A DNA stretch of 64,000 nucleotides from Stegostoma tigrinum (taxonomy: Eukaryota), in NCBI RefSeq assembly GCF_030684315.1, contig NC_081383.1:36086180-36150179 (forward strand), in the 5' to 3' direction. Shown piece after piece: positions 4,447 to 53,367 of this stretch. The notes under the pieces were generated by a model, which was not told the origin of the DNA, did no database searches, and was given only the letters and a program-made list of their open reading frames with translations. The position numbers and the translations under genes are program-made. How positions within the stretch are numbered: position 1 is the first letter of the stretch; each line of letters begins with the position of its first letter.

Positions 4447-4577
4447 GAGATAATGGGAACTGCAGATGCTGGAGACTCCAAGATAATAAAATGTGAGGCT
4501 GGATGAACACAGCAGGCCAAGCAGCATCTCAGGAGCACAAAAGCTGACGTTTCGGGCCTAGACCCTTCATCAGAGAG
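4447..4577 (-). mobile_element. Solo PLE terminal-repeat mini-insertion inside CR1
   Basis: Matches the terminal repeat at 13276-13405; flanked by 8-bp TSD GAATTGAA (4439-4446 / 4578-4585). Confidence 0.85.
4543..4576 (-). ncRNA. Minimal hammerhead ribozyme motif (PLE type)
   Basis: Minus strand reads CT-CTGATGA-A-GGGT(CTAG)GCCC-GAAA-CGTC-AG: intact core boxes, stem II, palindromic ACGT in place of stem III, GUC site; stem I only 2 bp. Confidence 0.7.
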
Positions 4578-6249
4578 GAATTGAACGCAGTTTTCCAAAA
4601 GTGGCCTAATCAATGTCCTGTACAGCCACAACATGACCTCCCAACTCCTATACTCAATGCACTGACCAACAAAGACAAGTGTACTAAACATTTTCTTCAC
4701 TATCTTGTCTACATGTGACTCCACATTCAAGGAAATATGAACTTGCACTAAAAGGCCTCTTTTTCGGCAGCACTCCCCAGGACCTTAATATTAAGTGTTT
4801 CAGTCCTGCCCTGATTTGCCTTTTGAAAGTGCAGCGCTTCTCATTTGTCTAAATTAAACTCCATCTGCCAGCCCTCGGCCCATTGGCTCACCTGATCAAG
4901 GTCCTGTTGTATTCCGAGGTTACTTCCTTCACTGTCCACTACAGCTGTAATTTGTCATCTGCAAACTTGCTAACCATACCTCCTATATTCACATCAGATT
5001 ATTTATATAAATGATGAAAAGCAGTAGATCCTTGTGGCACACTGCTGTTCACAGGACTTGAGTCTGAAAAGCAACCCTCCGCTACCACCCTCTGTCTCCG
5101 ATGTTTGAGCCAGTTCTATATCCAAATGACTAGTTCTCCTTGTGTTCCATGTGATCTAACCTTGATAAACAATCTACCATGCAGAACCTTGTCGTATGCC
5201 TGACTGAAGTCCATATAGATCACATCCACTGCTCTGCCTTCATCAATCCTCTTCATTAATTCTTCAAAAAACTCAATCAGGTTTGTGAGACATGATTTCC
5301 CATGCACAAAATCATGTTGATTATCCCTAATCAATCCTGGTCTTTTCAAATACATGTAAATCCTGTCCCTTAGAATCCCCTCCAATAATTTACCCACCAC
5401 TGAGGTCAGGCTCACTGACTTATAGTTTCCTGGCTCTTCCTTACCACCTTTCTTCAAAAGTGGCACCATGTTAGCCAACCTCCAGCCTTCCGGCACGTCA
5501 CTCATGGCAGTTGATGACACAAATATCTCAGCAAGGAGCTCTGCAATCACTTCTCAAGCTTTCCACAGAGTTCTAGGGTACACCTGATCTGGTCTTGGGG
5601 ATTTACCCACCTTTATGGATTTTAAGACCTCCAGCACCTCCTCCTCTGTAACATGGACACTTTTCAAGATGTCACTTTTTTATTTCCCTGCATTCTATAA
5701 CTTCCATATCCTTCTTCCCAGTAAACACTGATGCAATATACTCATTTTGTAACTTAAAATAACTATGTAATGGTAAAGGGCACTGTACCATATCCTGGGC
5801 AACTCCATTCTCAATTCTTATGGGGATTTAGTCATAAGATTCTAAGTAACAGTGCAGTTTAAAGAGAAGACTAGAATTATTTTCATATGAAATTTGAGTA
5901 GACTTCGAGTTGTGGCCAAATTTTAAATGAAATAAATTCAACCCAACGTTTCAATCAGTGGGTGTGAGTGACTAAGTTATTTTCACAAGTATATTACCAG
6001 ATTTAGTGTTTGCCTGAAGATGTTCCCCAACTTGTTGGGAATTTATCTCTGTACTGTTCAGGCTGGCAAACTGCAGGTGTATAGTCTATATAAACAGGGA
6101 TTGTGTTCAGCTTGTATAAGATATGCAATTAGGTAGGTCCTAACTGGAGGATTTTCAGTTATCCCATTAGAAAGATCCATAATTAAAGGACTGTTTAGTA
6201 GGAACTTGCAGTGGATTCTGATATCACTGCTCACCTTTTTGTATGAAAT

Positions 6250-8900
6250 TCATTTGCTAGAAAACTGGAAGGGATCAAAATAGAACCATTGCTCAAGACC
6301 TTATGTAAGAATTTCTCCTGATTATTGGGCTTTAAAATTGTGTGATGAGTTCCTTTGTTCCTTAATGATCTGGCTTTAACTTTAAACATTGCATTCCTTT
6401 TTCTTGATTTCCCTGACAGAAGAAAAATGATTTCCATACTGACTGCACGTAATCCTTTGATATTTTACTTCAACCAGATTACACTACAACTTTCTAAACT
6501 AAACACAAGACAGACTTATGTAACCTATCCCCATAATTTGATTTTCTAAATCCAGGCATTATTCTGGCAAGTATATGTTGAACTGCTCCATGGCCAATAT
6601 ATTCTTCCTGAGATGTGGTCCCCAAAACTGAATACAGCACCCTGGATGGAGACTAATGAAGACTCAATACAACTGAAGCATCACTTCCATTGATTTGTAA
6701 CTTTGGTCTTTATGATTATGAATGGGATTAAAGCTCCACAGAGCAGTTGGTTACTGATTTCTGTGCTGTGAGGATATCGGTAGATATTGAACAAATTCAG
6801 GAACGTGGAGCCGGAGTACAGTTAGCCTAAAGATGCAATAGAATTGAAAAAGATATGGGATCTTTGCCTGTTACAATATTCCTCCAGAGCTGTAGAATTG
6901 ATATGACTGCTGTTCAATATATTCTGTACCTCAGCTTTGTGCCAAAATAACCTCAGGTATCTTGCAATTTTCATACGGGCTCTAATGCTCCCATTATTTC
7001 CACATTATTCATGGGGACAGCAGGATAGATACTCCCCTAGATAAAAGTATTTCACAAATAGGCCAAATACAAATGGTAGAACACTTAGGAAAATGAGGAC
7101 AAAGCTAAATTTCACAAACCAACACCTATCCTCTGGCACCGTTTAGGTCTCTTGCAGTAGCTAGAAGTTGATTTTAAATTTGTCACAAGAAATAAGTGGG
7201 CCAGTTTTGAATATACTTGATGACTGAGTCCCTACAGCTGTCTGAGGTAGAGAATTCAAAAATTCACAAGCTTTGTTGAGAAAGGAGGAATAAATGGGTG
7301 ACCCTTTCTTTCTAAACTTTTCCCTCAAGTTCTCGAGTTCCCTGTGAGGGGAAACTTTCTGTCTCGTCAAGCCCCTTCCAAATCTTTTATGTTTCAGAAA
7401 AACCACCTCTAACTGTTCCAAACTCTGAGACCAATCTGTTCAATGCTTCTTCATTCCACGACTCATATCTGAACTGCCTGTAACACATGCATAATCCCAT
7501 TTTAAATAAGGAAACCAAAACTGCACACAATATTCAAGATATGGTCTCACCAATTCACTGCAGACTGTTGCAACACTTATCATGATATTCCATTTTCATT
7601 GTAACAAAGCAGAGTTAACCTGGCTTTATGATAGGGAAATAAGGTTTGATAAATTTAATGCTTATTTGAGGATGTAACAAGCAGAGTTAATAAAGTGGAC
7701 CTGTGGATATAGTGGATATAGAATCCCAAACATTCCATTTGCCTTCCCAATTACCCGCTGTACTTGCATATTAACTTGATGTGTTGAATGTACTAGGACA
7801 CCCAGATCCCTCTGTACCATGGTAATTGCTGGTGCACATTTTTTTTTCTATTTGAGGAACTTTGGGAAGTGTTGAAAGGATCCTCAGGCTGATCTATCTC
7901 ATTCACATTCCTTCTGTGACCATCAAGTCTTGGAGTGGAACTTGAACAAAGAGTTCGGAACAACATGTCAGGTGAACTACTCACTGAGCCACAGACCTCC
8001 AGCATTTAACTAATATTTTTCTTTTCTGCCTACCAAAGTGGATAAGTTCACATTTTCCCACTATGCAGCTCACCTGTCTTTCTTTTGTCTCCCTACTTAC
8101 CCTAATTACACACATCCCCTTTGCAGGCTGTTTGTGTTCTGTTCACAATTGGTTCTCATCTGTCTTTGTATCTCCGGCATAATTGGCCAGAATGAATTTG
8201 GTGCTTTCATCACTGATCCTAGTTCCTGTTTACCAACCTGTATATTTATAACCAGCTCTTCATTACCTGTTAATTAGCAATCATCTATCAATGCCCCAAC
8301 TTCATAGATTCATATCTTGTGTAATAACTATTATATGGCACCTTTTTGCCTTTTGAAAATCCAAATACACTACATCTATTGATTTTACTTCATTCTCTCA
8401 GCTTATAACATCCTTGTGGAACTTCAATAAAATTGTCCAGCATCATTTTCCTGAAGAAAAAATCAGTGTTGATTCTGCTTAATTGTATCATGATTTCCCA
8501 AACATCCTGTTGCTTCTTAATAATGGATTCTGGCATTTTCCCACTGACAGATTTCAAACTAACCAGCCTATAATTTTTTTGCCCTCTGTCTCATTCTTTA
8601 CTTGAATAGGAGCACTACATTTGTGGTTTGCCAATCCACTGGCAAAATCTAGGGATTTTTGAAAAATTACAACTGCATCCCGTTCTCTGCAGCCTGAGCT
8701 TTTAGGAGCCTGGAATGCATTGTGTCAAGTCCTTTCTGCCCTTAGTCTCAAAAGTTTGCATTGTACTTCTTTTGTAGAGTGAAATTTGCTTTAGATTCCT
8801 CCCTCCCCTTGATCTCATCTACCATTGAAACAAATACAAAATATTCGTTCAGTGTCTTTCTCTCATTTCCTTTTTTCCTATTATTAATTCACTCACTTCT
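6250..8900 (-). mobile_element. Highly decayed CR1-type LINE fragments
   Basis: Scattered similarity to the CR1 copies elsewhere in the window (e.g. 6590-6690, 7200-7570, 8330-8760); no intact ORF. Confidence 0.5.
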
Positions 8901-9319
8901 AACGTCTTAAAATGGAATCAATGGAACTACTGCAGATTCCTGTACAACAGTTTGCAATGGATGCCATAATATGTGGTTTGAACAACTGGACTCTCAGTCA
9001 ATAAATTCTGATATCTCGGATATTAGAACCTGAACCTGTCTGAAATGTATTGCCTTTATAACCTGGTGTGACAAAGAGAACCTAAATGTGCCTGAGGTAC
9101 TTTCCACTGAAACTATTCTCATAGTCTTCTGGAATTAATTTACTTCACATCCTCTGCCCAAGTGTCTGTAAGTCAGACTGAAGCACAAGGCTGAACTGAT
9201 ATGTGACAAATTTTGAACCAGAATAGAAAAAAAGTTACATCAGCAGAGTACAGCATAAGGATAGAGTAACATTCACATTGCAGAACTTGCGGAGTTGGGG
9301 GAGGCCATTAGACCCCTTT

Positions 9320-13275: not shown

Positions 13276-15778
13276 GGAGATAACGGGAACTGCAGATGCT
13301 GGAGAATCCAAGATAATAAAGTGTGGAGCTGGATGAACACAGCAGGCCAAGCAGCATCTCAGGAGCACAAAAGCTGACATTTCCGGCCTAGACCCTTCAT
13401 CAGAGAGGGGGATGGGGAGAGGGGGATGGGGAGAGGGAACTGGAATAAATAGGGAGAGAGGGGGAGGCGGACCGAAGATGGAGAGTAAAGAAGATAGGTG
13501 GAGAGGAGAGTATAGGTGGGGAGGTAGGGAGGGGATAGGTCAGTCCAGGGAAGATGGACAGGTCAAGGAGGCGGGATAAGGTTGGTAGGTAGGAAATGGG
13601 GGTGTGGCTTGAGGTGGGAGGAGGGGATAGATGAGACAAAGAACAGGTTAGGGAGGCGGGGATGAGCTGGGCTGGTTTTATGATGCAGTGGGGGGAGGGG
13701 AACGAGCTGGGCTGGTTTTGGGATGCGGTGGGGGAAGGGGAGATTTTGAAGTTTGTGAAGTCCACATTGATACAATTGGGCTGCAGGGTTCCCAGGCGGA
13801 ATATGAGTTGCTGTTCCTGCAACCTTCGGGTGGCATCATTGTGGCACTGCAGGAGGCCCATGATGGACATGTCATCTAAGGAATGGGAGGGGGAGTTAAA
13901 ATTGTTCGCGACTGGGAGGTGCGGTTGTTCATTGCAAACCGAGCGTAGGTGTTCTGCAAAGCGGTCCCCAAGCCGCCGCTTGGTTTCCCCAATGTAGAGA
14001 AAGCCACACCGGGTACAATGGATACAGTATACCACATTGGCAGGTGTGCAAGTGAATATCTGCTTAATATGGAAAGTCATCTTGGGGCCTGGGATGGGGG
14101 TTGAGGGATGAGGTGTAGGGGCAAGTGTAGCACTTCCTGCGGTTGCAGGGGAAGGTGCCCGGTGTGGTGGGGTTGGAGGGGAGTGTGGAGCGGACAAGGA
14201 GTCACGGAGAGAATGGTCTCTCTGGAAAGCAGACAAGGTTGGGGATGGAAAAATGTCTTGGGTTGTGGGGTCGGATTGTAGGTTGCGGAAGTGCCAGAGG
14301 ATGATGCGTTGTATCCGGAGGTTGGTGGGGTGGTGTGTGAGAACGAGAGGGACCCTCTTAGGGCGGTTATTGCGGGGGCCGGGTGTGAGGGATGTGTTGC
14401 GGGAAATGCGGGAGACACGGTCAAGGGCGTTCTTGACCACTGCACAGGGGAAGTTGCGGTCCTTGAAGAATGCGGACATCTGGGATGTGCCGGAGTGGAA
14501 TGTCTCATTGTGGGAACAGATGCAGCGGAGGCGAAGGAGTTAGGAATAGGGGATGGAAATTTTGCAGGAGGGTGGGTGGGAGGAAGTGTATTCTAGGTAG
14601 CTGTGGGAGTTGGTGGGCTTGAAATGGACATCAGTTTCTAGCTGGTTACCTGAGATGGAGACAGAGAGGTCCAGGAAGGTGAGGTATGTGTTGGAGGTGG
14701 CCCAGGTGAACTTGAGGTTGGGGTGGAAGGTGTTGGTGAAGTGGATGAACTGTTCGAGCTCCTCTTGGGACCAAGAGGCGGCGCCGACACGGTCATCAAT
14801 GTAACGGAGGAAGAGGTGGGGTTTGGGGCCAGTGTAGGTGCGGAAGAGTGACTGTTCCACGTAACCTACTAAGAGGCAGGCATAGCTGGGGCCCATGCAG
14901 GTACCCATGGCCACCCCCTTTGTCTGTAGGAAGTGGGAGGAATCGAAAGAGAAGTTGTTGAGGGTGAGGACGAGTTCGGCTAGGCTAATGAGGGTGTCGG
15001 TGGAGGGGGACTGGTCGGGCCTGCGGGATAGGAAGAAGTGGAGGGCCTTAGGGCCATCTGCAGGGGAATGCAGGTGTATAGGGACTGGACGTCCATGGTG
15101 AAAATGAGGTGTTGGGGGCCAGGGAATTGAAAGTCCTGGAGGAGGTGGAGGGCGTGGGTGGTGTCACGGACGTAGGTGGGGAGTTCCTGGACCAAAGGGG
15201 AGAAAATGGAGTCCAGATAGGTGGAGATGAGTTCGGTGGGGCAGGAGCAGGCTGAGACAAGGGGTCGACCAGGGCAGGCAGGTTTGTGGATTTTGGGAAG
15301 GAAATAGAAACGGGCCGTGCGGGGTTGGGGAACAATGAGGTTGGAGGCTGTGGGTGGGAGGTCCCCTGAGGTGATGAGGTCGTGAATGGTGTTGGAGATG
15401 ATGGTTTGGTGCTCGGGTGTGGGGTCATGATCGAGGAGGCGGTAGGAGGTGGTGTCGGAGAGTTGGCGTCTGGCCTCAGCGATGTAGAGGTCAGTGCGCC
15501 ATACTACCACTGCGCCACCCTTGTCTGTGGGTTTGATGGTGAGGTTGGGGTTGGAGCGGAGGGCTGCCCGTTCTGCGGGGGAGAGGTTGGAGTGGGTGAG
15601 AGGGGTGGAGAGGTTGAGGCGGTTAATGTCTCGACGGCAGTTGGAGATGAAGAGGTCGAGGGAGGGTAGGAGGCCTGGGGGTGGTGTCCAGGAGGAGGAC
15701 TTGTGTTGGAAGCAGGTGAAGGGGTCAGTGGAAGGAGGGTTGGGTTCCCGGTTAAAGAAGTAGGCATGGAGGCTGCGA
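13276..15778 (-). mobile_element. Penelope-like element (Neptune-type), 5'-truncated 2.5 kb: RT + GIY-YIG endonuclease + terminal repeat with hammerhead motif
   Basis: Frameshifted ORFs 14980-15510 (FYFLPKIHK..PGRP, TMDVQSLYT), 14540-14914 (AMGT.MGPSYA, RYIDD), 13400-14479 (NVVYCIHCTRCGFLYIGETKRRLGDRFAEH); 8-bp TSD AAATTACT at 13268-13275 / 15779-15786. Confidence 0.95.
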
Positions 15779-16003: not shown

Positions 16004-17968
16004 GTGAGTGAGGATCGGAGCGGGCTGCAGGCCCGGGGTCAAAATCCACGTCCATCCATTCCCGGCCGGGCCACTACCATCAGCCCGTCACTAGGAACTA
16101 ACTCGATACGTATTCATCTGCCATCCCGCTCCGATATTGTGGGGCATAGCTGATGAAATTGCGGGCGTTCAGTCGCAGCGGCGGTGCACACACTCGAACC
16201 CGGGGCCTCAGTCTGGGCCTAGTGCTTGTGCTTTACAGTTTTGTATGAGGGGCCGCCTTTACTGGGTCTTTCATATTCCTCAGGCTGAAGGTAGTGCCTC
16301 TCTTAACCAAGGCTCCGTTTCCTGGTAAAAGTTTGCATTGAGGTGGCCCCTGCCAGTCCATCCCGTTTCTAGTTCTCCACTCACTGTATCTCTCAATGAA
16401 TCCTAATGCCTTTCCCATGTAAGTACGTTACAAATCGACCAAGCGACCACAGAAAATGCCGCAAATACTCAACCTGGTCGTACAGCACCACTGTAGGGAA
16501 AATCACTTAATGTTTCAGATCTGTGAGCTTTCATCAGACACGAAAGGATAACTTTTCTTTCCTCCCCAGTGAGTGCTGACCCAGATCTGGAAGAAGCTCT
16601 CAGAGATGAAGCATTAGCTGCTCTTCTTCCCACGTATTACCTGACGAGTTGAGTTTTGCAAGCATTTTTTTTCAGATTTCCACCATTAACAGTACTTTGT
16701 TTAAGTAACACTGTCCTGATCCTCGTTATTTCTGTACAACAAATTCTGAACAGTTTAGAGAATGTTAATGTTTCAGATTCTGTTGTTTGGTTAATAGCCT
16801 ATTTTTTCAAATAATATTTTTGGCTATGCTCTGTTATGTTTCAAGTCGTCCATAATAGGGGTGTTATCAAACCCAGCTTATGTGGAAGCATCTTCTGCAG
16901 GTTCAGTCAGCATCTGAAATCTTTGTGGGTTAAATATTCAGCTGTGGTCCTTTGCAAGGTTCCTAGTGAAGCCTGTACCAATATCCTTCTATGACTATCC
17001 GTACAGCATTGTAGAATTACGGAATTTGGGCTTGGAGAAAAGTTTGATCCTCACCTTTCACCCCCAATCTGATTTCTCTATCATTTCTGAAGATCGACTG
17101 AAAAGATGATATCTCCTTTTTTTGTTCATTATTTTTCATGTTATATTAGTCTCTTTGAACACTTCTGACATTACAACAATAAATGATGTACAACACCACT
17201 CTGTCTGCAAATTTGTTTGTTCTGAAATATTGCATAACACCATTAAAATTACATGGATATTAATACTGAAAACCTCACGTTCATTCAGTCACATTTACAA
17301 TGCCCAAGGTAAAGAATCAAATCACTTTTGCTAGGCTTTAAATAAACGCAGGAGATGATCTTCTATGTGTACCACCTAAATAAAGTTATCCCAATAAAAG
17401 ATCTTTGATCTACAATATTTACTCTGCTTCTCTCTTCATTGAAGTTGCCTGAATTGCTGAACATCTGAAGTATTTTCTGGTTTCATTTAAGCTAGGCATA
17501 GTTTGTGAGAAAACAGAAATTGCCAAAGAACCTCAGATCTGGCAGCGTCTGTGGAGAGGTGTCAGATGTGCTGAGTTTCTCTAGCAATTTCTACTTTTGT
17601 TTCAGATCTCCAGCATCCACGGTTCTTTGTTTTATTATAATTTTTGGCAATGTTTATGTTAACATGTAAATGCATCAATGCAATAATTGGCAGTAGTTGC
17701 AGAGAGAGCCAAGAGTACTGCATGAGGGAGAAAGGAATAGGATACATTAACAGGATTAGGTGACAAAGCCTTGGACCATAAACCCTTGTGTAGGCCAGTT
17801 ACATTAAACTTTTGATGTGATTCCCTGCCTGAACTTGTTCTTTTTTTCTTGTGTTATTGAGAGCATGTGGTGTTAGCAGGCACATGTTTTCATTTAGCTT
17901 TCATTATGCTGAGCTCTGAACTAAGGATAGGTTGATCATTTCTAATCCCTTTTTTGTAAAATGCCTGA

Positions 17969-18205
<237 letters not shown>

Positions 18206-21500: not shown

Positions 21501-22164
21501 TCTTTGTGTCTCTGTTATTCTGTGAGATCATCACTGCTTTACAACCTAACTAACCTTTGTCCCAAAGTGTTTTATATGTCTGAAAAATAAAATTCCACTA
21601 ATTCCGTGTTTAAAAAGTACCAGTTTAGCATCTGTTGCAATTTGCAGAAGAGCACAAATTTCTTGACAAACTGTATGTGTAAATGTCCTGAAAACATGAA
21701 AACAGTTTTTGCTTCCATTTGTTCCCCAAATATCTTGACTTTGATCATATCGTATCAAATTCCAGGAACCACTGACCTAGTTTTTGTAGTTTCTTTGTAA
21801 CTTAACCTCTTAGGCACCGATATGGTTTTGATGAAACTGCACGGCATTGTCTGTTAAGGCAGTATATCCTTCTTGATGTGTTGTGCCCAGACTGCTCGCA
21901 GCCAGGGCCTTATCTGGACAAAGTATGGCTTTACTACCTTGAACTCTGGTCCTCTAGAAAGGAAAGCATTATTCCATTGGCTTTTATTATTATTATTTAA
22001 TATTTGTTTGTTCCAGTTTAATGATTTGTACATGGAGCCCCAAATTCCTTTGGGCTTTGACTGTTCCTAGCTTTTTAACATCCAGAAAGAGTCCTGTTTT
22101 TATCTTTCATTTGCCTATATTCAAAATTCATTTATTACAGTTTTCACATTGATAATACATTTTA

Positions 22165-22385
22165 AAAAACAAAATAACTGCAGATGCTGTAAGTCAGGAA
22201 CAAAAACAAGTTGCTGGAAAAGCTCAGCAGGTCTGGCAGCATCTGTGAAGAAAAATCAGATAATGTTTCGGGTCCGGCGACTTAGAAGTCAGAAGTTCTG
22301 AGGAAAGGTCAGTGGACTCGAAACGTTAATTCTGATCTTTCTCTTCACAGACGCTGCCATTCCTGCTGAGCTTTTCCAACAATTT
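22165..22385. repeat. Fold-back element made of two inverted PLE terminal repeats, with a + strand hammerhead core
   Basis: Arms GTTGCTGGAAAAGCTCAGCAGGTCTGGCAGCATCTGTGAAGA / TCTTCACAGACGCTGCCATTCCTGCTGAGCTTTTCCAACAA; CTGAGGA at 22298, GAAACGTT at 22320. Confidence 0.8.
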
Positions 22386-22906
22386 ATGTAATAATACATG
22401 TTGTAGTTGTATGCTTCATCTACGCTACTTACACTGCCACTTTTTTATGCCATCATCAAGTTAGGGTAAGTAGCTATCTAATTCATTATCTGATTTGTTA
22501 ATAAATATGATGAATAGGTGAGGGCACAGCATAGATTCTTGCAAGGGTATCATTAAACAAATAACAAACAATGGTAGGGCTTGTACAACTAATGATAGGG
22601 CCTTGGGTGTTCGTAGAGTCACACAGCATGAAAACACCCTTCAGTCTGGCCATTTCAGAATTGTCACCTTTGAGAGATTGGGAGCAGACAAACAGCTGCA
22701 ATTGGTCTTGGGGTTTGGACACAGTGATTCGTATAGAAGGGTGCAGAGAAAGTGCTGTGGGTTTAAAAGAGTGAAGTTAATATGATTACTTGATTAGATG
22801 TTGTTGAAGAGAATTTGAAATTATTTTGGCATTGCTATAGAGGGATACTCAGGTCTTGCCACTAAAAATTCCACTACCCTAACTATTTTCCCACCTTTGT
22901 CTGCAG

Positions 22907-24712: not shown

Positions 24713-24858
24713 TGTGGAGCTGAAATTTTCTGATGAAGGGTCTAGGCCCGAAACATCAGTTTTTGTGCTCCAAAGATGCTGTTTGGCCTGCTGTGTTCAT
24801 CCACCTCCACACTTTGTTATCTCGGATTCTCCAGCATCTGCAGTTCCCGTTATCTCTC
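24713..24858 (+). mobile_element. Solo PLE terminal-repeat mini-insertion with hammerhead motif
   Basis: CTGATGAAGGGTCTAGGCCCGAAACATC at 24730; 9-bp TSD TTCTTAGAA at 24704-24712 / 24859-24867. Confidence 0.85.
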
Positions 24859-25269
24859 TTCTTAGAAAGTAACCTGGATTTGCTCAAGAACTGCAGTTTC
24901 AAGATAGTAGATGTAATACACAATGAAATCTGCAATTTAGAATCCTACCCCGATGCGTTAATATTTGCCCTATTTCCTGATTGCTGCCAATAGAGTGCTT
25001 CAGACTGCAGACAGGAACTGGGAGGGAAAGATAGCAGAAATCAAGGTAGCCAGTTACGGTGTGAAATTTTGCTGACTGAACCTGCCTCATTTGATTTAGC
25101 AGACCTCTGCTCCAGATAAGGCCAAGTTTCATAGCAATGCCTAGACCTTTGGAATGGTAGCCGTTACAGCTCAGGAGAAGATCATTCAGCAACTGAGACT
25201 ATGTATGATATTTGTAGAGCAATCTGAATTCCTCGTTCTCAGCCAGAAAAGTTTAAAATCCTCAGTTGT

Positions 25270-25995
25270 CTAGCTGCTGAACGGATATCCCCTCAACTTC
25301 ATCGCAGGTGCCTTCTAAATAGACAATGCCAAGAGGACACACTACAACCTGACACACTAGCCACGCTGCCCTATGACAAGAACAGAACTGACAATGAAAC
25401 TCCTACCACCACCAGGAATCGAGATAACACACAAGCCCACAGCCACGCTACAACAAACACAAGGATTAAAGACCCTATACCCATGACATGTAGAACCAAT
25501 GTAATTTACAAAATACCATGCAGAGACTGCCACAAACATTAGATTGGACAGACAGGAAAGAAACTAGCCATCAGAGTACATGAGCATCAGCTGCAGCAAA
25601 GCAACACAACAAACTTGCCCCAATATCAGTATGCTCGGATAATGAGGGCCATCAGTTTAATTGGGACAAGGTAACCATAGTAGCCCAAGCCAAACATAGA
25701 CATGCACGGGAATTCCTAGAGGCATGGTTCTCAAGATATAATGCGATCAACAAACATGTAGATTCGGACCACATATGCAAATCCACACAGAACAGAACCA
25801 GAAATAACACAACTGACCATAACGGACCAGACTGTACAAATTCCAAATAACATCGCTTCATTGGAGACCCCACTGATGATGTCACCTTGCATGGTGACAA
25901 AATGTCTGGATGAAAACAAGCCAGCTTGGCGAGCAAGTCAACAACTTCACTGACAACCTGAGCTGCAAATCTTTGCAAAAACTTTAAATTCACTA
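25270..25995 (+). mobile_element. Second PLE family (Penelope/Poseidon-type), 3' fragment
   Basis: NGYP...LPY and VIYKIPCRDCHKH*IGQTGKKLAIRVHEHQ GIY-YIG motif; decayed hammerhead at 25871-25910. Confidence 0.8.
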
Positions 25996-26879
25996 AGGTG
26001 TGTAAAAACTGATAGGGTAATTATATTAGGGAATGACTATGACCCCAATATTTTTGGGATAATCAGAGTGTGGAGTTTTTAGACGGGGTAGATGTCTTGA
26101 AGTGCATAAGGAGGGAACATGATGTCAACAACAGATGGTCCTAATTCTGGGGAATGAAACTGGACAGATGTTTGAGGTGACAGCGGGAGAGGATTTTAGT
26201 GATGGTGACCACAACATCGAACGTGTTAAGTTTGTTGTGAATAAGAAGAAAGCCTGTAAAAATGCGTTTTGGATTGAGGTAAGGCCAATTTTTTAAATTA
26301 TAAGGCAGCATCTGGTTGAAATAGACTTGAAACAGCCACTTCAATGTAAATTTACAACAGATCAGTGGGAGGTGCTCCAAAAGGAAGTGGGGGGGGGGTG
26401 GCGGGGGAGTATAGGCCCAATATGTTCTCTTCTGTGTGAAATGTAGGAGCAACAAACCAGAGAACCCTGGATGTTGAGGAATATTCAGGGCTGGATAAAA
26501 AGGTAAAGAGAGTCATATAACAGGTACAAAGGGAGCAAAACAATAGGAGCAAACGAAATGCAGCTGAGAATCTCAAGAAAGCAATTAAGAGAACGAAGGA
26601 AGTGCGTGTGAAAATTCTGACAGGCAAGTTGGTAAATGAAGGGAAGAGGATAACCAGTCAAAGAGGAGAGACCAAGGGCTCAATCTGTGTGTGAAGTTGG
26701 AGGATATTGATAGAGTGTTAAATGAGAACTTCACGTCTGTCTTTACTCTGGAGGAGGAGGATGCAAACACAGAATTCAAGAAGATGGACAGTGAAAGCCT
26801 TGAGTGGATTGATTTCTGAAGTGAGGAGTACTGGAGGTGTTCAAGGTGGACAAATGCTGACGTCCAGATAAGTACTTTT

Positions 26880-28670
26880 TTAATTTGTTCATGGGAGTGT
26901 GGGTATCACTCGCTGGGCCACCATTTATTGCTCATCTCCACTTGCCATGGGACAATTAAGAGTCAACCACATCGCTGTGGGTCTGGAGTCACATGTCAGC
27001 TAGACCAAGGAAGGATGGAAATGAGAATTAGAATAGAATCAGGATTAGGTTTCATTGTCACATGTACTCAAGGATAGGGATACAGGAGTACAGTGAAAAG
27101 TGTACAAAGTCACCATTCTCCAGGACTATTAGGTACAAAATCTTACATATAAAGTAGAAAACAAAGAAATAAAGTTCAAAGTTTAGCATTACAGTCCTTC
27201 TGAAGTGCTTAGCTATGGGCCCGGATCTGGGCGCTTCCACCCTGACGCTGAGACCATCAGCAGCTTGTGTTCCCTCGCTGCTCTGCTGCTGCAGATCCAT
27301 GTTTCTGTTCTTTGGCACCATCTTGCCTCTAGCAACAGCGTCGCTGCCATGAGACCATGCTGGGCTGAGCTTGGCAATGAAGCCGCCGCTGAAGCTGCCA
27401 TGTGCTCTCCACAGTAGGCAAATATGTTTAAAGTTAAAAAAAAAGCACAGACAGGAAAAAAAGTAAAAGCAGATGGAGTTGATGAGTCCGCGCAGGGCTT
27501 CAGCTTGGGTCCCTCACCTCCATCCCAGGCCTCAAGAAGACTTTCCACATCAAGCAGATGTTCACCTGCACATCTGCCAATGTGGTAAACTGCATCCACT
27601 GTACCCGGTGTGGCTTCCTCTGCATTGGGGAAACCAAGCGGAAGCTTGGGGACCTCTTTGCAGAGCACCTACACTCGGTTCGCAATAAACAACTGCACCT
27701 CCCAGTCGCAAACCATTTCAACACCCCCTCCCATTCCTTAGACGACATGTCCAGCCTGGGCCTCCTGCAGTGCCACAATGATGCCACCGAAGGTTGCAGG
27801 AACAGCAACTCATATTCCACTTGGGAACCCTGCAGCCCAATGGTATCAATGTGGATTTCACAATCTTCAAAGTCTCCCCTCCCTCCACTGCATCCCAAAA
27901 CCATCCTAGCTTGTCCCTGCCTCCCTAACCTGTTCTTCCTCTCACCTATCTCCTCCTTCCACCTCAAGCCGCACCTCCACTTCCTACCCACTAACCTCAT
28001 CCTGCCCCCTTGACCTGTCCGTTCTCCCCAGACTGACCCATCCCCTCCCTACCTCCCCACCTACACTCACCTCTACTGGCTCCCTCCCCGTCCCTTTAAC
28101 TTGTCTGTCTCCTCTCCACCTATCTTCTCCTCTATCCATCTTTGATCTGCCTCCACCCTCTCCCTATTTATTTCAGAACCCTCACCCCCTCCCCCTTTTC
28201 TGATGAAGCGTCTAGGCCCGAAACGTCAGCTTTTGTGCTCCTAAGATGCTGCTTGTCCTGCTGTGTTCATCCAGACCCACACTTTGTTATCTCAGATTTT
28301 CCAGCATCTGCAGTTCCCGTTATCTCTCTTCAACTTGGGGCCATGGTGGGCTTAACCTTGACTCAACACGAGATCAGCTTGTCACCACCGATGCTCCCTG
28401 AGAATGAGAGGTAAGTAGAAAGGAAAAAGCATACAAGAAAAAGAATAATAGAAATGGACAATAGTGAATGAGCTCTGACTCACGAGACCTACTCTGTTGC
28501 CATCTTGGATCATTGCTGAACCAGACAGGTTTTCCCAAAATTGACATTAGTTTTTTAATTCCAGGTTTTTAATTGAATATAAATCCTCTATCTGTCATGG
28601 CAGGATTCAAAACCAGATCCCCAGATCATTGTTGAGGTCCCTAGATTGATACTAGACCATTGCCTGTCTG
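26880..28670 (-). mobile_element. SacSINE1-like tRNA SINE split in two (26880-27020 and ~28520-28670)
   Basis: Both halves match the uninterrupted copy at 45455-45790 (CACATCGCTGTGGGTCTGGAGTCACATG; tRNA-like head near 28600-28660). Confidence 0.6.
27510..28327 (+). mobile_element. PLE (Neptune-type) 3' fragment: GIY-YIG + terminal repeat
   Basis: ORF 27558-28013 (FTCTSANVV..HCTRCG...IGETKR); hammerhead motif at 28200; TSD CTTCAGCTTGGG 27498-27509 / CTTCAACTTGGG 28328-28339. Confidence 0.92.
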
Positions 28671-29733: not shown

Positions 29734-29841
29734 ATAACACAGTGTGGAGCTGGAGGAACACGGCAGGCCAGGCAGCATCCGTGTTCCTCCAGCTCCACAC
29801 TGTGTTATCTCTGAGTCCAGCATCGGCAGCTCTTACTATCT
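29734..29841. repeat. Fold-back PLE terminal-repeat mini-insertion in CR1
   Basis: Perfect 31-bp inverted repeat 29733-29763 / 29779-29809; 15-bp TSD CTGTGTA(A/T)GCTTGGG 29719-29733 / 29842-29856. Confidence 0.9.
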
Positions 29842-32982: not shown

Positions 32983-33160
32983 GCAAAAACAGAATTTGCT
33001 GGATAAGCTCAGCAGGCCTGGCAGCATCAATGAAGAGAAATCAGAGTTAACATTTTCGGTCTGGTGACCCTTCCTCAGAACTATTCTGGGGTTCTGAGCT
33101 TTTCTAGCAATTTTTGGTTTTGTTTCTGATTTACAGCATCTGCAATTCTTTTGGTTCTTA
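32983..33160. repeat. Fold-back PLE terminal-repeat element with minus-strand hammerhead core
   Basis: Same family as 22165-22385; minus strand 33046-33082 reads AGTT-CTGAGGA-AG-GGTC(ACCA)GACC-GAAA-ATGTT-AACT. Confidence 0.8.
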
Positions 33161-33164
33161 CTTT

Positions 33165-35027: not shown

Positions 35028-36549
35028 TTGTACACTGGCCCTATCCCCCACCTCTTCCTCTGCTACATCGATGACTGTATCACTGCCACCTCATGCTCCC
35101 ACGAGGAGCTCAAACAGTTCATCCACTTCACTAATGCCTTCCACCCCAACCTTAAATTCACCTGGACCATCTCTGATACCTGTCTCCTTCCTGGCTCTCT
35201 CTGTTTCCATCCCTGGCATCCACCTGGAAACTGATATCCATTTCACACCTACCGACTCCCACAGCTACCTAGAATACACCTTCTCCCACCCAACTTCCTG
35301 CAAAAATGCCATCCCCATTCCCAATTCCTTCGCTTCCACTGCATCTGCTCCCAAGATGAGGCATTCCACTCCTGTACATCCCAGATGTCCTCGTTTTTCA
35401 AGAACTGCAACTACCCCTTCACAGTGATCAAAAACGTCCTTGACAGCATCTCTCGCATTTCCCACAACTCATCCCTCACACCCCCTCCCCACAATAACAG
35501 CAAAAACAGAATCCCCTTCGTCCTCACATACCACCACACCAACCTCCAAATCCAAGGCATCATCCTCCAACATTTCTGCCATTTGCGATCTGACCCCACC
35601 ACCAAGGACATTTTTCCCTCCCCACCCTTATCTGTCTTCCGGAGGGACCACTCTGTCTGTGACACCCTTGTCTGCTCCACACTCCCATCCAGCCCCACCA
35701 CTCCCGGCACTTTTCCATGTAACCACAGGAAGTGCTACACCTGCCCCTACACTTGCCCCCTCACCCCCATCCCAGGCCCCAAGAAGACTTTCTACGTCAA
35801 GCAGATGTTCACCTGCACATCTGTTAATGTGGTATACTGCATCGGCTGTACCCGATGTGGCCTCCTCTACATTGGGGAAACCAAGCAGAGGCTTGGAGAC
35901 CGCTTGGTGGAACACCTACGCTCGGTTTGCAACAAACGACTACACCTCCCAGTCACAAACCACTTCTACTCCCCCTCCCACTCCTTGGACGACCTGTCCA
36001 TTCTGGGCCTCCTGCAGTGCCGCAATGATGCCACCCGACGGTTGCAGGAACAGCAACTCATATTCCACTTGGGAACCCTGCAGCCCAATGGTATCAAAGT
36101 GGACTTCACAAACTTTAAAATCTCCCCACCCCCCACTGCATCCCAAAACCAGCCCAACTCGTCCCCGCCTCCCTAACCTGTCCTTCCCCTCACCTCAAAC
36201 CCCACCCCCACCTCCTACCTACCAGCCTCATCCCCACCTCCTTGACCTGTCTGTCCTCCCTGGACTGACGAACCTCCACCCTAACTCCCCACCTACACTC
36301 ACCTTTACTGGTTCCATCCCCGCCTGCTTGACCTGTCTGTCTCCTCTCCATCTATCTGCTCCTTTATCCATCTTCCATCCGCCTCCCCCCTCCCTATTTA
36401 TTTCAGAATCCCCTTCCCCTCCCCCATTTCTGAAGAAGAGTGCAGACCTGAAATGTCAGCTTTCGTGGCCCTCTAATGCCTGTTGTGTTCATTCAGCTCC
36501 ACACCTTGTTATCTCAGATTCTCCAGCATCTGCAGTTCCTGCTATCTCT
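35028..36549 (+). mobile_element. PLE (Neptune-type), 5'-truncated
   Basis: YIDD at ~35065; ORF 35385-36176 with PCNHRKCYTC and NVVYCIGCTRCGLLYIGETK; terminal repeat 36430-36549. Confidence 0.93.
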
Positions 36550-39500: not shown

Positions 39501-40110
39501 AGTTGGAGCCTTAGTGGAAAATGCCAATTGGCCTTCTTTAATTGGAATTAATAGCGATCATGTTGTAGCTATACAGGATGTTGGTGGGGCTTCTTCAAGT
39601 GTGCGGTGTACAATTCTGGTTGCCCTGCTATATGAAGGATGTTATTAAATTGGAGAGTGTTCAGAAAAGATTTACAAGCATGTTGCATGGGCTGGAGGGC
39701 TTGAGTAATAAGGAGAGGCTGGATAGGCAGGAACATTCCTCACGAGAATGTAGGAAGCTGAGGGGTTTATAAAATCATGAAGGGCAGAGATGAGGTGAAT
39801 AGCAAAAGTCTATTCTGCAGGGTACTGGAGTTGAAAACCAGAAGGAATATTTTGAAGGTGAGAGGAGAAAGATTTGAAAGGAATTCGAGGGGCAATGTTT
39901 TCAGAATGGCTCATATGTGGAATGAACTGCCAGAGGAAGTGATAGTGACAGTTACAACATATAAAAAGACATTTGGACAGGTACATGAAGAGGAAAGGTT
40001 TAGAGGGATATGGGCCAAATGCAAGCAAACGGAACTAGTTCAGTTTAGGAAACCCGTTCAGCATGGATAGGTTGGGCTGAAGGGTCTGTTCCCATGCTGT
40101 GTTACTATAA
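36550..40110. mobile_element. Cluster of CR1/L2 fragments (36550-37020 +, 37150-37945 -, 38330-38900 + L2-like, 39555-40110 +)
   Basis: RDLGSLVHQSLKV, KDVIKLESVQKRFT and WNELPEEV motifs in the ORF track. Confidence 0.75.
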
Positions 40111-40289
40111 CTGGTTTCCTGCAGGTGGCGGTTGCGTTTGCTGGCCGGCCCCAGACCCCTTCTATTGAACACGGCTTGTGTCAGCGGTGGCCTTGGGCAA
40201 CAGCGTATTCTCTGGCCTCGGCACCTTCAGGCCCTGTCTGCCCACGTTCCTTCTGGTCGGGCTTGAGGTTCCTTCCCATTGAGTCTGCT

Positions 40290-41468
40290 CTAGACTTCCA
40301 AAAGGCCTTTGATACGGTGCCTCACAGGAGGCTGCTGAGCAAGGTGAGGGCCCATGGTGTTCGAGGTGAGCTACTGGCTTGGATTGAGGATTGGCTGTCT
40401 GACAGAAGGCAGAGAGTTGGGATAAAAGGCTCTTTTTCGGAATGGCAACCAATGACGAGTGGTGTCCCGCAGGGTTCAGTGTTGGGGCCGCAGCTGCTCA
40501 CCTCATATATTAATGATCTGGATCAAGGGACTGGGGGCATTCTGGCGAAGTTCGTCGATAATACAAAGTTAGGTGGACAGGCAGGTAGTACTGAGGAGGT
40601 GGGGAGGCTGCAGAAAGATTTAGACAGGTTAGGAGAGTGGTCCAAGAAATGGCTGATGAAATTCAATGCGAGTAAATGCAGTTTGGAAAAAAGAATACAG
40701 GCATGGACTATTTTCTAAACAGTGAGAAAATTCATAAAGCCGAAGTACATAGGGATCTGGGGGTGCTAGTCCAGGATTCTCTAAAAGTTAACTTGCAGGT
40801 AGAATCCGTGATTAAGAAAGCAAATGTAATATTGTCACTTATCTCAAGAGGGTTGGAATATAAAAGCAGGGACGTGCTTCTGAGACTTTATAAAGCTCTA
40901 GTTAGGCCCCATTTAGAATACTGTGTCCGATTTTGGACGCCACACCTCAGGAAGGACATACTAGCCCTGGAGCGTGTCCAGCGGAGATTCACACGGATGA
41001 ACCCTGGAATGATAGGGTTAATGTATGAACGGCTAGGGATCCTGGGATTGTATTCATTAGAGTTTAGAAGGTTGAGGGGAGATCTAATAGAAACTTACAA
41101 GATAATGTATGACTTAGAAAGCGTGGACGCTGGGAAGTTGTTTCTGTTAGGCGGGGAGAATAGGACCCATGGGCACAGCCTTAGAATTAGAGGGGGTAAA
41201 TTTAAAACGGAAATGAGGAGACATTTCTTCAGCCAGAGAGTGGTGGGCCTGTGGAATTCATTGCCACGGAGCACAGTGGAGGCCGGGACATTAAATGTCT
41301 TCAAGGCGGAGATTGATAAATTTTTGACCTCGTGGGGAGTTAGGGCTACAGGGAGTGTGTGGGTAGGTGGAGTTGAAACGCCCATCAGCCATGATTAAGT
41401 GGTTGAGTGGACTCGATGGGCCAAATGGCCTTACTTCCACTCCTATGCCTTGTGGTCTTATGGTCTTA
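40290..41468 (+). mobile_element. Young CR1 LINE, 5'-truncated
   Basis: LDFQKAFDTVPH, SGVPQGSVLGP, LVRPHLEYCV, RRLRGDLIETYKI with one frameshift; (TGGTCTTA)n tail at ~41453-41468. Confidence 0.95.
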
Positions 41469-42066
41469 TTTTCAGAGTCTACCTCAGCAAATTTGTGCCT
41501 CGTGTCTTCATAATTTTGCTTATTACAATTTAACTCCCTTCAGTTTGAACTACGTCACTTTCAAACATTATGTTCTCAGGCTGCTAAGCCAGTTCAGGTC
41601 AGACTGTTTGCACATTAACAGATCAGGGAACAATATAAGAAATGAGCACGAGCAGGACATTTGGACCTTGAACCTGCTCTGCTCTGCAATAAGATCATGA
41701 CTGTTATGACTTAGACCTTAACTCTGTTTTTCTGCCCACCCCTCATAATTCATACCTTGACTCCCTGGTTGGCAAAATTGTGTTTAACTCAGACTTGACT
41801 ACATTAAATAAGTGAATCTGCACAGCATTTTGGGGAAAAGGATAAAGTCCCTCTGAGAGAAGAAATTCCTCATTTCCATTTTAAATGGGAAACCCTTTAA
41901 TTTTAAACTGTGTCCTCTAGCCTAGTTTTCCCATGAGGTGAAATATTCTTTAATTATCTATCCAATGCAGCCCCAGGATGATCTTACATTTCAATAAGAT
42001 CATCTTTTGTTTTTCTCTCCTCCCAAGCTTCACCTTTCCTCAGAAAGCAGCCCTTTCATCCCTGGA
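41468..42066 (+). repeat. Local duplication, copy A (copy B at 52320-52932)
   Basis: Collinear high similarity over ~600 bp, including a shared junction between unique sequence and an old LINE end. Confidence 0.9.
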
Positions 42067-43263
42067 TAACAAAGTGTGAAGCTGGATGAACACAGCAGGC
42101 CAAGCAGCATCTCAGGAGCACAAAAGCTGATGTTTCGGGCCTAGACCCTTCATTAGAAAAGGGGGATGGAGAGAGGATTCTGAAATAAATAGGGAGAGAG
42201 GGGGAGGCAGACCGAAGATGGATAGAGGAGAAGATAGGTGGAGAGGAGAGTACAGGTGGGGAGGTGAGGAGGGTAATAGGTCAGTCCGGGGAGGACGGAC
42301 AGGTCAAGGAGGCGGGATGAGGTTAGTAGGTGGTAAATGGAGGTGTGGCTTGAGGTGGGAGGAGGGGACAGGTGAGAGGAAGAACAGGTTAGGGAGGCGG
42401 GGACGAGCTGGGCTGATTTTGGGATGCAGTGGTGGGAGGGGACGAGCTGGGCTGGTTTTTTAGATTAGATTCCCTACAGTGTGGAAACAGGCCCATTGGC
42501 CCAACAAGTCCACACCGCCCCTTGGAGAAACCCACCCAGAACCATCCCCCTACAACCCACTCACCCCTGAATACTACAGGCAATTTAGCATGGCCAATTC
42601 ACCTATCCCGCACATCTTTGGACTGTGGGAGGAAACCGGAGCATCTGGAGGAAACCCATGCAGACATGGGGAGAATGTGCAAACTCCACACAGACAGTTG
42701 CCCGAGGCTGGAATCGAACCTTGGTCCCTGGTGCTGTGAGGCTGCAGTGCTAACCACTGAGCCACCATTTGGGATGCAGGGGGGGAGGGGGAGATTTTAA
42801 AGCTTGTGAAGTCCATATTGATACCATTGGGCTGCAGGGTTCCCAAGTGGAATATGGGTTGCTGTTCCTGCAACTTTCAGGTGGCATCATTGTGGCACTG
42901 CAGGAGGCCCATGATGGACATGTCATCTAAGGAATGGGTGGGGAATTAAAATGGTTTGCGACTGGGAGGTGCAGTTGTTTATTGCGAACCCAGTGGAGGT
43001 GTTCTGCCAAGCAGTCCCTAAGCCTCCGCTTGGTTTCCCCAATGTAGAGGTAGCCACACCGGGTATAGTGGATACAGTATACTACATTGACAGATGTGCA
43101 GGTGAACATCTGCTTAATATGGAAAGTCATCTTGGGGCCAGGGATAGTGGTGAGGGAGGAGGTGTAGGGGCAAGTGTAGCACTTCCTGCGGTCGCAGGGG
43201 AAGGTGCCGGGTGTGGTGGGGTTGGAGGGCAGCGTGGAGCGAACAAGGGAGTCACGGAGAGAG
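42065..43263 (-). mobile_element. PLE (Neptune-type) 3' fragment interrupted by a SINE
   Basis: ORF 42927-43130 GIY-YIG motif; terminal repeat 42065-42160. Confidence 0.92.
42460..42767 (-). mobile_element. HE1/V-SINE-type SINE nested in PLE
   Basis: tRNA head TGGTGGCTCAGTGGTTAGCACTG..GGTTCGATTCC, core TGTGTGGAGTTTGCACATTCTCCCC, (AATCT)n tail. Confidence 0.9.
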
Positions 43264-43971
43264 TGTCTGTCTCAATAGGAGTGTCCAAATTTGTAACTTT
43301 TACTAATGAGGAGGAAGTGGGGAACAAAATAGCAACAAATGCATGGGAACACACTACCACACCACAGCCAGAACGTTAAAGAGCAGTTCATGAAGGCAGT
43401 TTATCGCCCCGACCTCAAGGGCAATTAGGGCAGTAAATGCTGGCTTTGCCTGTGCTGTTCACGTGGCATGATGTAATTTTAAAGAGCTCCAGTACTTGCC
43501 TTTAGTTCTGATTTAGATTTTTTTTTGTCCAGGAAGGCCACGGGGAGTCAGGAAGGGCCTGATCAAAATCTTTCAAAATTACATGGATATGAGAGGGGAA
43601 TCGGGCAGCTGGAGGGTTGCCGCTATAACATGGACTTTGTACGCCAATAATCTCGGCAACTATAGAGTGACAGCAGCAGAAGAAAGTTGTAACTGTCACG
43701 TGCAAGCTGGATTAATGGTCACCTGGAGACAGGGCTTTGTTGGAGTGACCAGAATACATTGATAAATGTGTATGGCAGTGGACATGTGCTTTATGAAAAG
43801 AAATGAAATTTAGTCAATGCTTCATATGCAGAGCTTTCACAAAAGGACTGAAAAAGTTGTTAAACTTAGGAATGTGGGAACATTGATAGGACAAAGTTTA
43901 GTGCTGAGCCATGTGACGGAGGGGAACTAGCCAAACCCCTGACAGTTAAAGCAAATCACAAGCCCCCAACC

Positions 43972-45790: not shown

Positions 45791-45999
45791 GCTTATTGTC
45801 AACCCCAACCAAGTGGCGACATTAAAATAGAGTCAGGGCTCTCTTGTGGTGCAGTGGCAGTGTCCCTACTTTTGGGCCAAGAGACCTGGATTCAAGTCCC
45901 ACCTGCTGCACCAGTGTGTAATAACATCTCTGAACAGGTTGATGAGGTAAAATAGTTCATGCTAGAACATAGGGCTTCCCAGCCTATCTTAACTGTGTT

Positions 46000-46425
46000 A
46001 CAGTCATCAATGTAAAGGAGGAAGAGGTGGGGTTTAGGGCCAGTGTAGGTGCGGAAGAGGGATTGTTCCAGGTAACCTACTAAGAGGCAGGCATAGCTTG
46101 GGCCCATGCGGGTACCCATGGCCACCCCCTTTGTCTGTAGGAAGTGGGAGGAATTAAAAGAGAAGTTGTTGAGGGTGAGGATGAGTTCGGCCAGGGTGTC
46201 AGTGCGCGGGCCTTGTCAGGCCTGCAGGACAGGAAGAAGCAGAGAGCCTTTAGGCCACCTGCATGGGGAATGCAGGTGTATAGGAACTGGACATCCATAG
46301 TAAAAATGAGGTGTTGAGGACCAGGGAATTAGAAGTTCTTCTAGGCCTAAAATGTCAGCATTTGTGCTCCTAAGATGCTGCTTGGCCTGTTGTGTTTATC
46401 CAGCTCCACACTTTGTTATCTCTTC
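46000..46425 (-). mobile_element. PLE RT fragment (-) with an inverted terminal-repeat piece (+, 46341-46425) at its 5' break
   Basis: MDVQFLYTCIPH, AMGTRMGPSYA, YIDD; inverted repeat begins inside the hammerhead stem II (CTAGGCCTAAAATGTCAG). Confidence 0.85.
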
Positions 46426-50902: not shown

Positions 50903-51023
50903 TGATAATGGGAACTGCAGATGCTGGAGAATCCATGAAGAGTCTCGGCCCGAAATGTCAGCTTTTGTGCTCCTGAGACGCTGCTTGGCCTGCTGTGTTC
51001 ATCCAGCTTCACACTTTGTTATC
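50903..51023. repeat. Inverted pair of PLE terminal-repeat fragments
   Basis: Minus-strand 3' end (50903-50934) joined to a plus-strand piece starting inside the hammerhead core (ATGAAGAGTCTCGGCCCGAAATGTCAG); TGTTATGTT on both flanks. Confidence 0.8.
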
Positions 51024-52319: not shown

Positions 52320-52932
52320 ATTTTCACAGTCTCCCTCAACAAATTTGCGCCTCATGTCTTCATAATTTTGTTTATTACAATTTAACACCCTTCCTTCAGT
52401 TTGAACTCTTTCAAACATTATGTTCTCAGGTTGCTAAGCCAGTACAGATCAGACTGCTTGCACAATAAAAGATCAGGGAACAATATAAGAAATGAGCACT
52501 TGCAGAACATTTGGACCTTGAACCTGCTCTACTCTGCAATAAGATCATGAAAATAATCAAAAATAATCTTAACTCCATTTTCCTGCCCACCCCTCATAAG
52601 TCAAAATTTGACTCCCTGGTTGACAAAATTGTGTTCAACTCAGCCTTGACCATATTAAATGAGTGAATCTGCACAGCATTTTGGGGGAAAGGATAAAGTC
52701 CCTCCGAGAAAAGAAATTCCTCTTCTCCATCTTAAATGGGAAACCCTTTAATTTTAAACTGTGTCCACTAGCCTAGTTTCCCCATGAGGTGAGATATTCT
52801 TTAATTATCCATCCAATGCAGGCCCAGCATGATCGTACATTTCAATAAGATCATCTTTTGTTTCTCTCTCATCCTAAGTTTAGGCCCAATTTGCTTCACC
52901 TTTCCTCGGAAAGCAGCCCTTTCATTCCTGGA
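52320..52932 (+). repeat. Local duplication, copy B
   Basis: Collinear with 41468-42066. Confidence 0.9.
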
Positions 52933-53152
52933 ATCAGCTTTGTAAACATCTGAACTGAGTCCAGTGCAAATATATTTCTTTTTCACAAACGTGGACAAAC
53001 TGCATAGAATACTCTTGTAGGAGTTACACCATAACCCTGAATGGCACAGCATCATTTGTTGTCCATTACTTCAATATACTGTCCAACCTTTCAATTGTTT
53101 TTCTAATTACTTGCTGTATCTGCATCTTTATCAAAACCACCTGAGTAATCAC

Positions 53153-53367
53153 ACTAGATAACAAGGTGTAGAGATGGATGAACGCAGGAGGCCAAGCAGC
53201 ATCAGAGGAGCAGGAAGGCTGATGTTTCGGAAATTCCATTTCTGAAGAAGGGTCTAGGCCTGAAACATCAGTCTTCCTGCTCCTCTGATGCTGCTCGGCC
53301 AGCTGTGTTCGTCCAGCTCTGCACCTTGTTACCTCAGATTCTCTACCGTCTGCAGTTCCTACTATCT
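53153..53367. repeat. Fold-back PLE terminal-repeat mini-insertion
   Basis: ~70-bp imperfect inverted arms around a hammerhead remnant (CTGAAGAAGGGTCTAGGCCTGAAACATC at 53242); perfect 12-bp TSD CTGAGTAATCAC 53141-53152 / 53368-53379. Confidence 0.9.

Follow-up and report, generated by a model that had tools for sequence, protein, structure and literature searches.

The stretch of DNA considered here, 64,000 nucleotides of the 3.2-Gb genome of Stegostoma tigrinum (contig NC_081383.1; C38:36,086,180-36,150,179) and hereafter the window, is dotted with pieces of the terminal repeat (pLTR) of Penelope-like elements (PLEs), and a pLTR-only insertion will be called a mini. Position 0 of the repeat is C3 in the CUGANGA core of its hammerhead motif, which puts the predicted hammerhead cleavage between +27 and +28. 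An earlier note on this DNA had listed eight such insertions, and all eight are present where it placed them; its view that they share one repeat fails, since two of them, at 22165 and 32983, come from a different family, B, and of its statement that most carry a hammerhead core what stands is a complete core in five of the eight, those at 29734, 46341 and 50903 being without one. In family A, the solo mini at 4447..4577 (minus strand) runs from -4/-5 to +127 with a full core and an exact 8-bp target-site duplication (TSD), and it interrupts a long interspersed element (LINE) fragment of CR1/L2 type, so that its empty site is readable. At 24713..24858 (plus strand) a 10-nt inverted piece (about +71..+80) precedes a copy from -4 to about +129, with an exact 9-bp TSD, and the old inverted mini at 53153..53367 has a minus arm of +20..+91, a plus arm of -6..+126 and an exact 12-bp TSD. 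The inverted mini at 29734..29841, without a core, joins a minus arm of +45..+91 to a plus arm of +63..+128 within a 15-bp TSD that has one mismatch, read by eye where the automatic caller had missed it, and that at 50903..51023, whose 13-bp TSD (one mismatch) the earlier list did not give, joins a tail-only minus arm of about +90..+127 to a plus arm of +3..+91, the two not overlapping, like classic twin priming. A short arm at 46340..46422 (plus strand; +11..+92) abuts an opposite-strand reverse transcriptase (RT) fragment at 45999-46339 (element -1753..-1403), and a TSD was looked for there and not found. Family B contributes inverted minis at 22164..22389 (minus arm +10..+132, plus arm -4..+91, 9-bp TSD), at 32984..33163 (minus arm -4..+96, plus arm +65..+133, with only a 6-bp AT match, so that a TSD is not established) and, absent from the earlier list, at 17510..17639, where the arms start from +38 and +57, without a core, and no TSD was found.

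All of these are terminal-repeat pieces of two Neptune-type PLEs, A and B, which are the same kind of element as the PLEs already known. An intact family A copy (L101) has a partial tandem and an open reading frame (ORF) of 1,132 amino acids (L101:2730-6128) with RT, Cys linker and GIY-YIG endonuclease (EN), the RVT_1 (E=1.2e-6) and GIY-YIG (E=0.003) matches both lying just under the Pfam cut-offs, and, before the RT, has a tandem repeat rich in Thr, Ala, Pro and Asp whose copy number varies. The Cys-rich linker ahead of the EN, C-x4-C-x2-C, was read by eye, and together with the RT and GIY-YIG it makes the element Neptune type by the diagnostic of PMC8557442. Further structural traits of such PLEs are present, namely a partial tandem pLTR, an inverted copy, a tail at one end and a TSD, and the PLE origin proposed earlier, with integration by the PLE RT/GIY-YIG, is supported. 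Family A is young, with 40 of 40 scored matches to its 5' part about 100% identical, and the family B pLTR lies about 250 nt behind an EN that is some 45-55% identical to that of family A. The window itself holds a long 5'-truncated family A copy at 13277..15773 (minus strand; RT, Cys linker, GIY-YIG, a 3' untranslated region (UTR) with a TATA-like box, and pLTR, the frame broken), further 5'-truncated copies at 27510..28326 (plus; EN region to pLTR), 35031..36548 (plus; old) and 42065..43272 (minus; interrupted, ending at the short, +91, site), and a body fragment from RT thumb to EN at 1..829 (minus), cut by the window edge. A Pfam search of the window's broken frames returned no PLE domain and a PDB search with the RT/EN part no match.

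The earlier note had also placed breakpoints within about 20 nt of the core, and for the window alone this is weak evidence, because 20 nt on either side of the core spans about half of a 130-nt element; in the genome at large, the peak turns out to be much sharper. Our sample consisted of 149 evenly spaced 10-kb stretches (1.49 Mb), in which family A arm ends were called against 37 natural long copies, and of 371 arms called 347 were kept, the 24 dropped being inside the window or cut by an edge. Of the 227 arms that reach +5, 121 end at -7..+5, a rate of 0.053 per nt and about 25 times the upstream rate of about 0.002 per nt; 7 of 106 end at -20..-8, and the figure farther out is 0.001-0.003 per nt; between +6 and +45 it is 0.007-0.011 per nt. 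Among young copies (at least 93% identical) 42 of 94 end at -7..+5 and none of 52 at -20..-8, and in family B 46 of the 62 arms that reach the hammerhead stop at the same place. The 5' ends are therefore non-random, with their main peak upstream of the cleavage site, and the sample shows neither the uniform breakpoints nor the lack of TSDs that would have spoken against the earlier account; its claim that ends lie upstream of the cleavage site rather than at it is right for this main peak and has to be qualified by a minor one at the predicted cleavage site (+28). A splice-acceptor origin of the end was considered and ruled out, with only 3 ends at -27..-20.

The 3' ends are just as orderly, being bimodal at about +91 and +127 in family A and about +96 and +135 in family B. 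Long and short ends are equally common among family A arms (166:167), and 78 of 86 head-to-head family A insertions have one of each, as have 17 of 23 inverted insertions in family B. TSDs of 9-19 bp flank 65 of the 86 (shifted control 0/83) and 29 of 103 single minis (control 3/167), so the idea of independent, TSD-flanked integration events is borne out; no strong target motif was found beyond AT-richness (TSD GC 0.36 vs 0.42). One +91 plus one +127 end is the one-sided tail already known from PLEs (PMC8557442, PMC3846280), and an Anolis PLE protein, predicted to be dimeric, cuts and extends both strands in vitro and starts at two internal sites (PMC11167929).

Could the inverted minis instead arise by fold-back self-priming of a single cDNA or antisense RNA, as has been proposed for rotifer PLEs (PMC3846280)? 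Near-perfect palindromes with 4-bp palindromic centres do exist, and perfect fold-backs were counted at 727 loci for +28..+31, 281 for +15..+18 and 53 for +23..+26. A fold-back from the +127 arm, however, needs that arm to be the one reaching further 5', which it does in 24 of the 78 long/short pairs, against 37 for the +91 arm (17 are equal), and a fold-back from the +91 arm cannot produce the tail; with long pairs often differing by hundreds of nucleotides and solo minis ending equally at +91 and +127 (82:83), we regard this route as highly improbable. The solos could in turn be what is left by recombination between the two pLTRs of full-length copies, which would keep the TSD, and among 30 young loci with an ORF start 4 of 29 upstream repeats do end at -4..+7. 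Such ORF-start loci usually carry a long inverted arm, though, and solo-plus-long-arm products number 0 of 86, while neither the solos that end at +91 nor the inverted forms with two short arms would be explained, and to this origin we give almost no credence.

The two arms of an inverted insertion, moreover, share their fate. In 5' reach, 71 of the 86 pairs are both short, 15 both long and none mixed, and for the 35 pairs in which both arms reach +5, 20 stop together, 15 pass together and none is mixed, where independent stalling predicts 17. In four of the 15 long pairs the two arms stop less than about 40 nt apart (permutation p=0.002), three insertions (L203 and L112, with TSDs of 15 and 12 bp, and L231) each repeat a private internal junction of their own in both arms over several laps, and family B has 1 clear mixed pair among 23; comparing long arms with minis for running into ORF-side sequence revealed no difference. 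The coupling suggests that both arms were copied from one template. It also bears directly on the proposal of the earlier note that the insertions are products of RT stalling and template switching at the folded ribozyme, for which one can cite the ends at +6..+45, 3-5 times commoner than those upstream, a predicted 6-bp hairpin closing at +29 that could make the +28 peak, and the 727 perfect fold-backs centred at +28..+31. But the main-peak ends lie past the motif, 5' of the structure and not at its 3' foot, by which point the motif has already been copied, and stalling at the ribozyme is not supported as their main cause; the one-sided wall, the extra G described below, the missing mixed pairs and a pLTR that folds no better than its shuffles all make this reading very unlikely.

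What does lie at the right distance from the peak is a set of signals resembling those of a transcription start. TATTTAT begins at -33..-36 in 31 of 37 long family A copies and TATAAA at -33/-34 in 11 of 22 long family B copies, which puts a TATA-like box about 30 nt before -4 in both families, and the bases at -4 fit a TCT-type initiator (young A) or an initiator (Inr; old A, B), judged by what we take to be the consensus of these motifs. Searching the genome for [non-C][purine] before -4 returned 5,304 matches, with 98 G to 2 A among the first 100 listed (young A, hand-counted), and an internal control site returned 187, with 44 G to 56 A among the first 100 listed (likewise hand-counted); of 21 family A G junctions inspected, the G is clearly untemplated in 6. 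By analogy with L1, in which an extra G marks full-length 5' junctions as a cap signature (PMC11702581), the extra G before -4 in young family A suggests a copied mRNA cap, and start sites inside the pLTR are already known for PLEs (PMC2377424, PMC8557442). Three long copies (L287, L098, L133) have G replacing C at -5, possibly a strand-transfer scar after cap copying.

Taken together, we think it likely that the minis are run-off copies of the leader at the 5' end of the PLE's own RNA, made by twin priming. Pol II would start at about -4, with a TATA-like box some 30 nt earlier, in the 3' UTR that precedes the repeat, so that the transcript would have the hammerhead as its first structure. 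The GIY-YIG endonuclease would make a staggered double cut about 14 nt apart, in keeping with the TSDs, and both DNA ends, perhaps held by a dimer, would prime on the same RNA, one at +127 and one at +91, giving head-to-head arms. With priming at the 5' pLTR, both cDNAs would run out of template at -4 and add a C opposite the cap, to be end-joined with some trimming, and a single successful arm would give a solo. A minority of templates would begin at +28, the predicted hammerhead cut, and long arms would require a template that continues past -4, be it a 3' pLTR, a tandem or a circular RNA. Minis, without the TATA-like box, are predicted to be dead ends.

Several points weigh against this account. 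The start site at -4 is a prediction from genomic sequence, and the arm ends are local-alignment calls with a tolerance of 2-3 nt either way. Relaxed pairing yields two short/long candidates in the sample (L174, L063), to which the window adds a third at 46341, none of the three stopping at the -7..+5 peak; the upstream repeats of the young ORF-start loci seldom end there either (the 4 of 29 above), and 10 of the 22 long family B copies are without an exact TATAAA. At 12 of the 21 inspected G junctions the G could derive from the partner arm or filler, 2 more lie within the TSD and 1 is an internal variant; RT may add a C without a cap, and family B has no G excess before -4 at all (45 G to 55 A among 100 matches listed). 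The D. virilis Penelope promoter, for its part, is internal, TATA-less and well upstream of its hammerhead (PMC2377424, PMC4209133), so that the layout of box, start and hammerhead is not universal. Some of this would suit a reading in which the RNA molecule itself sets the -4 end without having its capped start there: both RTs would be halted by a processing cut or by a protein bound to the C-rich tract, and the G would be added independently of a cap. Such a stop would explain the one-sided wall and the coupled arms equally well, would be at ease with the ratio in family B, and could point to the likeness of the upstream tract to a polypyrimidine/AG splice acceptor; yet against it stand the TATA-like box, which two unrelated upstream sequences carry at the proper distance, the internal control site without a G excess and the scarcity of ends at the AG near -23, and we consider it unlikely.

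Turning to the hammerhead itself, a 12-copy alignment displays the features of a minimal type I motif, with core bases, a helix II that is 90% paired, the A15.1-U16.1 pair in 12 of 12 and a palindromic helix III, and covariation is not above shuffles (63/500). Helix I, which in a minimal type I motif would have 4-5 bp, has 4 in family B and just 2 in family A, whose core is masked by a competing hairpin. Self-cleavage is a prediction for both families, and an Rfam scan of the window reported no hammerhead, just weak miRNA-like hairpin matches at palindromes. As for the minor peak, 6 of the 347 family A arms start at +28, where the local mean would predict 1.9 (p=0.014), and the pattern of a +28 start has 2,366 matches genome-wide, its ratio to the control being inflated because the +28 pattern has no CpG and covers more subfamilies. 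Of 8 non-palindromic +28 matches inspected, 7 were junctions, 3 of them starting exactly at +28. Either a cleaved template or a pause at the base of the predicted hairpin could account for this peak, and it is solely here that a role for the ribozyme survives.

Two TSD-flanked head-to-head insertions, L203:4982-6179 and L112:6769-8434, contain several laps of an internally deleted unit of 301 nt or about 440 nt, made up of the 3' UTR box, the hammerhead and the ORF start, and similar units occur in L223, L229 and L231; these retrozyme-like arrays possibly derive from small circular RNA. Elsewhere (L214, L229, L242, L277, L300) end-to-end template jumps leave from -2..-4 or +28 and land at the 3' end of a further element RNA, the joint in L214 carrying a short A run, and these jumps speak for the run-off account. 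It is tempting to bring all products under one PLE transcript in three states, in which capped linear RNA would give -4 minis with the cap G, hammerhead-cut RNA the +28 minis, and circles formed from RNA cut in each of its two pLTRs the long arms, partial tandems and multi-lap arrays. We hold this only tentatively, and doubt it more than we believe it; were it true, the hammerhead would decide whether copying is abortive or productive, and in vivo evidence for cutting by a minimal PLE hammerhead would be there in the genome.

Minis make up 179 of the 271 family A insertions in the sample, about 380,000 genome-wide by extrapolation, and such abundance invites the other suggestion of the earlier note, a self-propagating non-autonomous family, retrozyme- or SINE-like (SINE, short interspersed element), spread from master copies. 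The 727 identical junctions at one palindrome and the two identical junction types that recurred among the 21 inspected could be read in the same way. However, 85 of 86 inverted junctions have distinct coordinates, and where identical fold-back junctions do recur at unrelated loci, as the earlier note had thought worth looking for, they sit on sequence palindromes (the 727, 281 and 53 loci), with L273 and L280 differing in subfamily. Minis are dispersed and not tandem: of 135 cores 6 have a same-strand neighbour (within 700 nt), and two arrays account for 4 of these. They track all subfamilies, are found in every age class beside long copies, and are without the upstream TATA-like box at -34. 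No mini in the window consists of tandem units each with a hammerhead, as retrozymes do, and a family of this sort is in our judgement very doubtful. RNA may nonetheless be supplied in trans by truncated copies that retain the -34 box, which would fit the run-off explanation.

How does all this sit beside systems already described? The endonuclease-bearing (EN+) PLEs of the Neptune clade share with ours a single ORF with RT and C-terminal GIY-YIG, the Cys linker, partial tandems, an inverted 5'-truncated copy, a 30-40-bp tail at one end only, TSDs of 8-10 bp, solo pLTRs and, in one rotifer pLTR, a putative TATA and Inr (PMC8557442, PMC3846280). They are reported with variable 5' truncation and with self-priming proposed for palindromes (PMC8557442, PMC3846280), whereas in our family A sample pLTR-only pieces make up two thirds of the insertions, with a 5' end sharp to the nucleotide, the extra G and coupled arms. 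Metazoan PLE minimal hammerheads likewise have a type I core, an extra base before helix II and a palindromic minimal helix III, and occur mostly singly or as opposite-strand pairs 100-700 bp apart, ascribed to truncated PLEs (PMC4209133); the accessible account does not map their ends, as is done here, and ours differ in a family A helix I of 2 bp and helix II of 4 bp, and a family B helix I of 4 bp that starts at the presumed +1 base.

The Anolis Poseidon element PAc has the same two internal RT starts bounding the tail, the same cutting and extension of both strands by a predicted dimer, and mostly uncleaved RNA as template, but it belongs to another clade, its 5' ends and inverted arms fall outside that study as openly available, and it yielded no RNA-seq reads at the cleavage site, where we see a minor genomic peak (PMC11167929). 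Metazoan non-LTR retrozymes resemble minis in being non-coding, hammerhead-bearing, pLTR-related and PLE-mobilised, yet are tandem units with at least 2 hammerheads that give circular RNA, whereas minis are solo or head-to-head (PMC7229834; bioRxiv 10.64898/2026.07.22.740005), and the rare multi-lap arrays alone fit that layout. In L1, too, a second RT is primed from the reciprocal DNA end, with a 12-18-bp TSD and the extra G, but its arms are adjacent, non-overlapping parts of the RNA with the second start set by microhomology, while in the minis each of the two starts is fixed and overlap of the arms is usual (PMC11702581). A fixed, cap-marked 5' end or coupled arms was not found in the open PLE, hammerhead and retrozyme literature, subscription papers and Repbase lying outside the search.

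The elements, then, are of a known kind, and it is the explanation that is sharper than, and different from, that of the earlier note. For PLEs, the sister group of telomerase, the origin of inverted repeats, of the one-sided tail and of pseudo-LTRs, and the role of the hammerhead, are stated to be open questions (PMC2377424, PMC3846280, PMC8557442, PMC11167929); if the run-off reading is true, minis would be a large fossil record of PLE self-copying. With short insertions in the hundreds of thousands, this young family allows predictions testable to the nucleotide: a start on the ribozyme's first base, priming of a single RNA at two set sites from a cut staggered by about 14 nt, and a minor cleaved template. 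Dispersed hammerhead monomers also call for caution before they are annotated as a retrozyme or SINE family.

The rest of the window is more varied. Fragments of a third PLE-like element, perhaps of Poseidon type, lie at 25228-26657, with a VIYKIPC-type endonuclease motif in the 25228-25542 frame, and another hammerhead-like core, with no close relative inside the window, is found at 16513-16537 (minus strand). CR1/L2-type LINE fragments occupy 4211-4784, 40071-41460 and 56860-57393; an apparent CR1-PLE chimera at 41387 and 57314 proved to be an artefact of CR1 matches via one family B panel member. A fragment of an LTR element, with a weak match to the integrase core (rve), lies at 884-1195, and on the plus strand at 58219-58632 and 63455-63790 there are immunoglobulin V-set and C1-set exons, probably part of a light-chain cluster.

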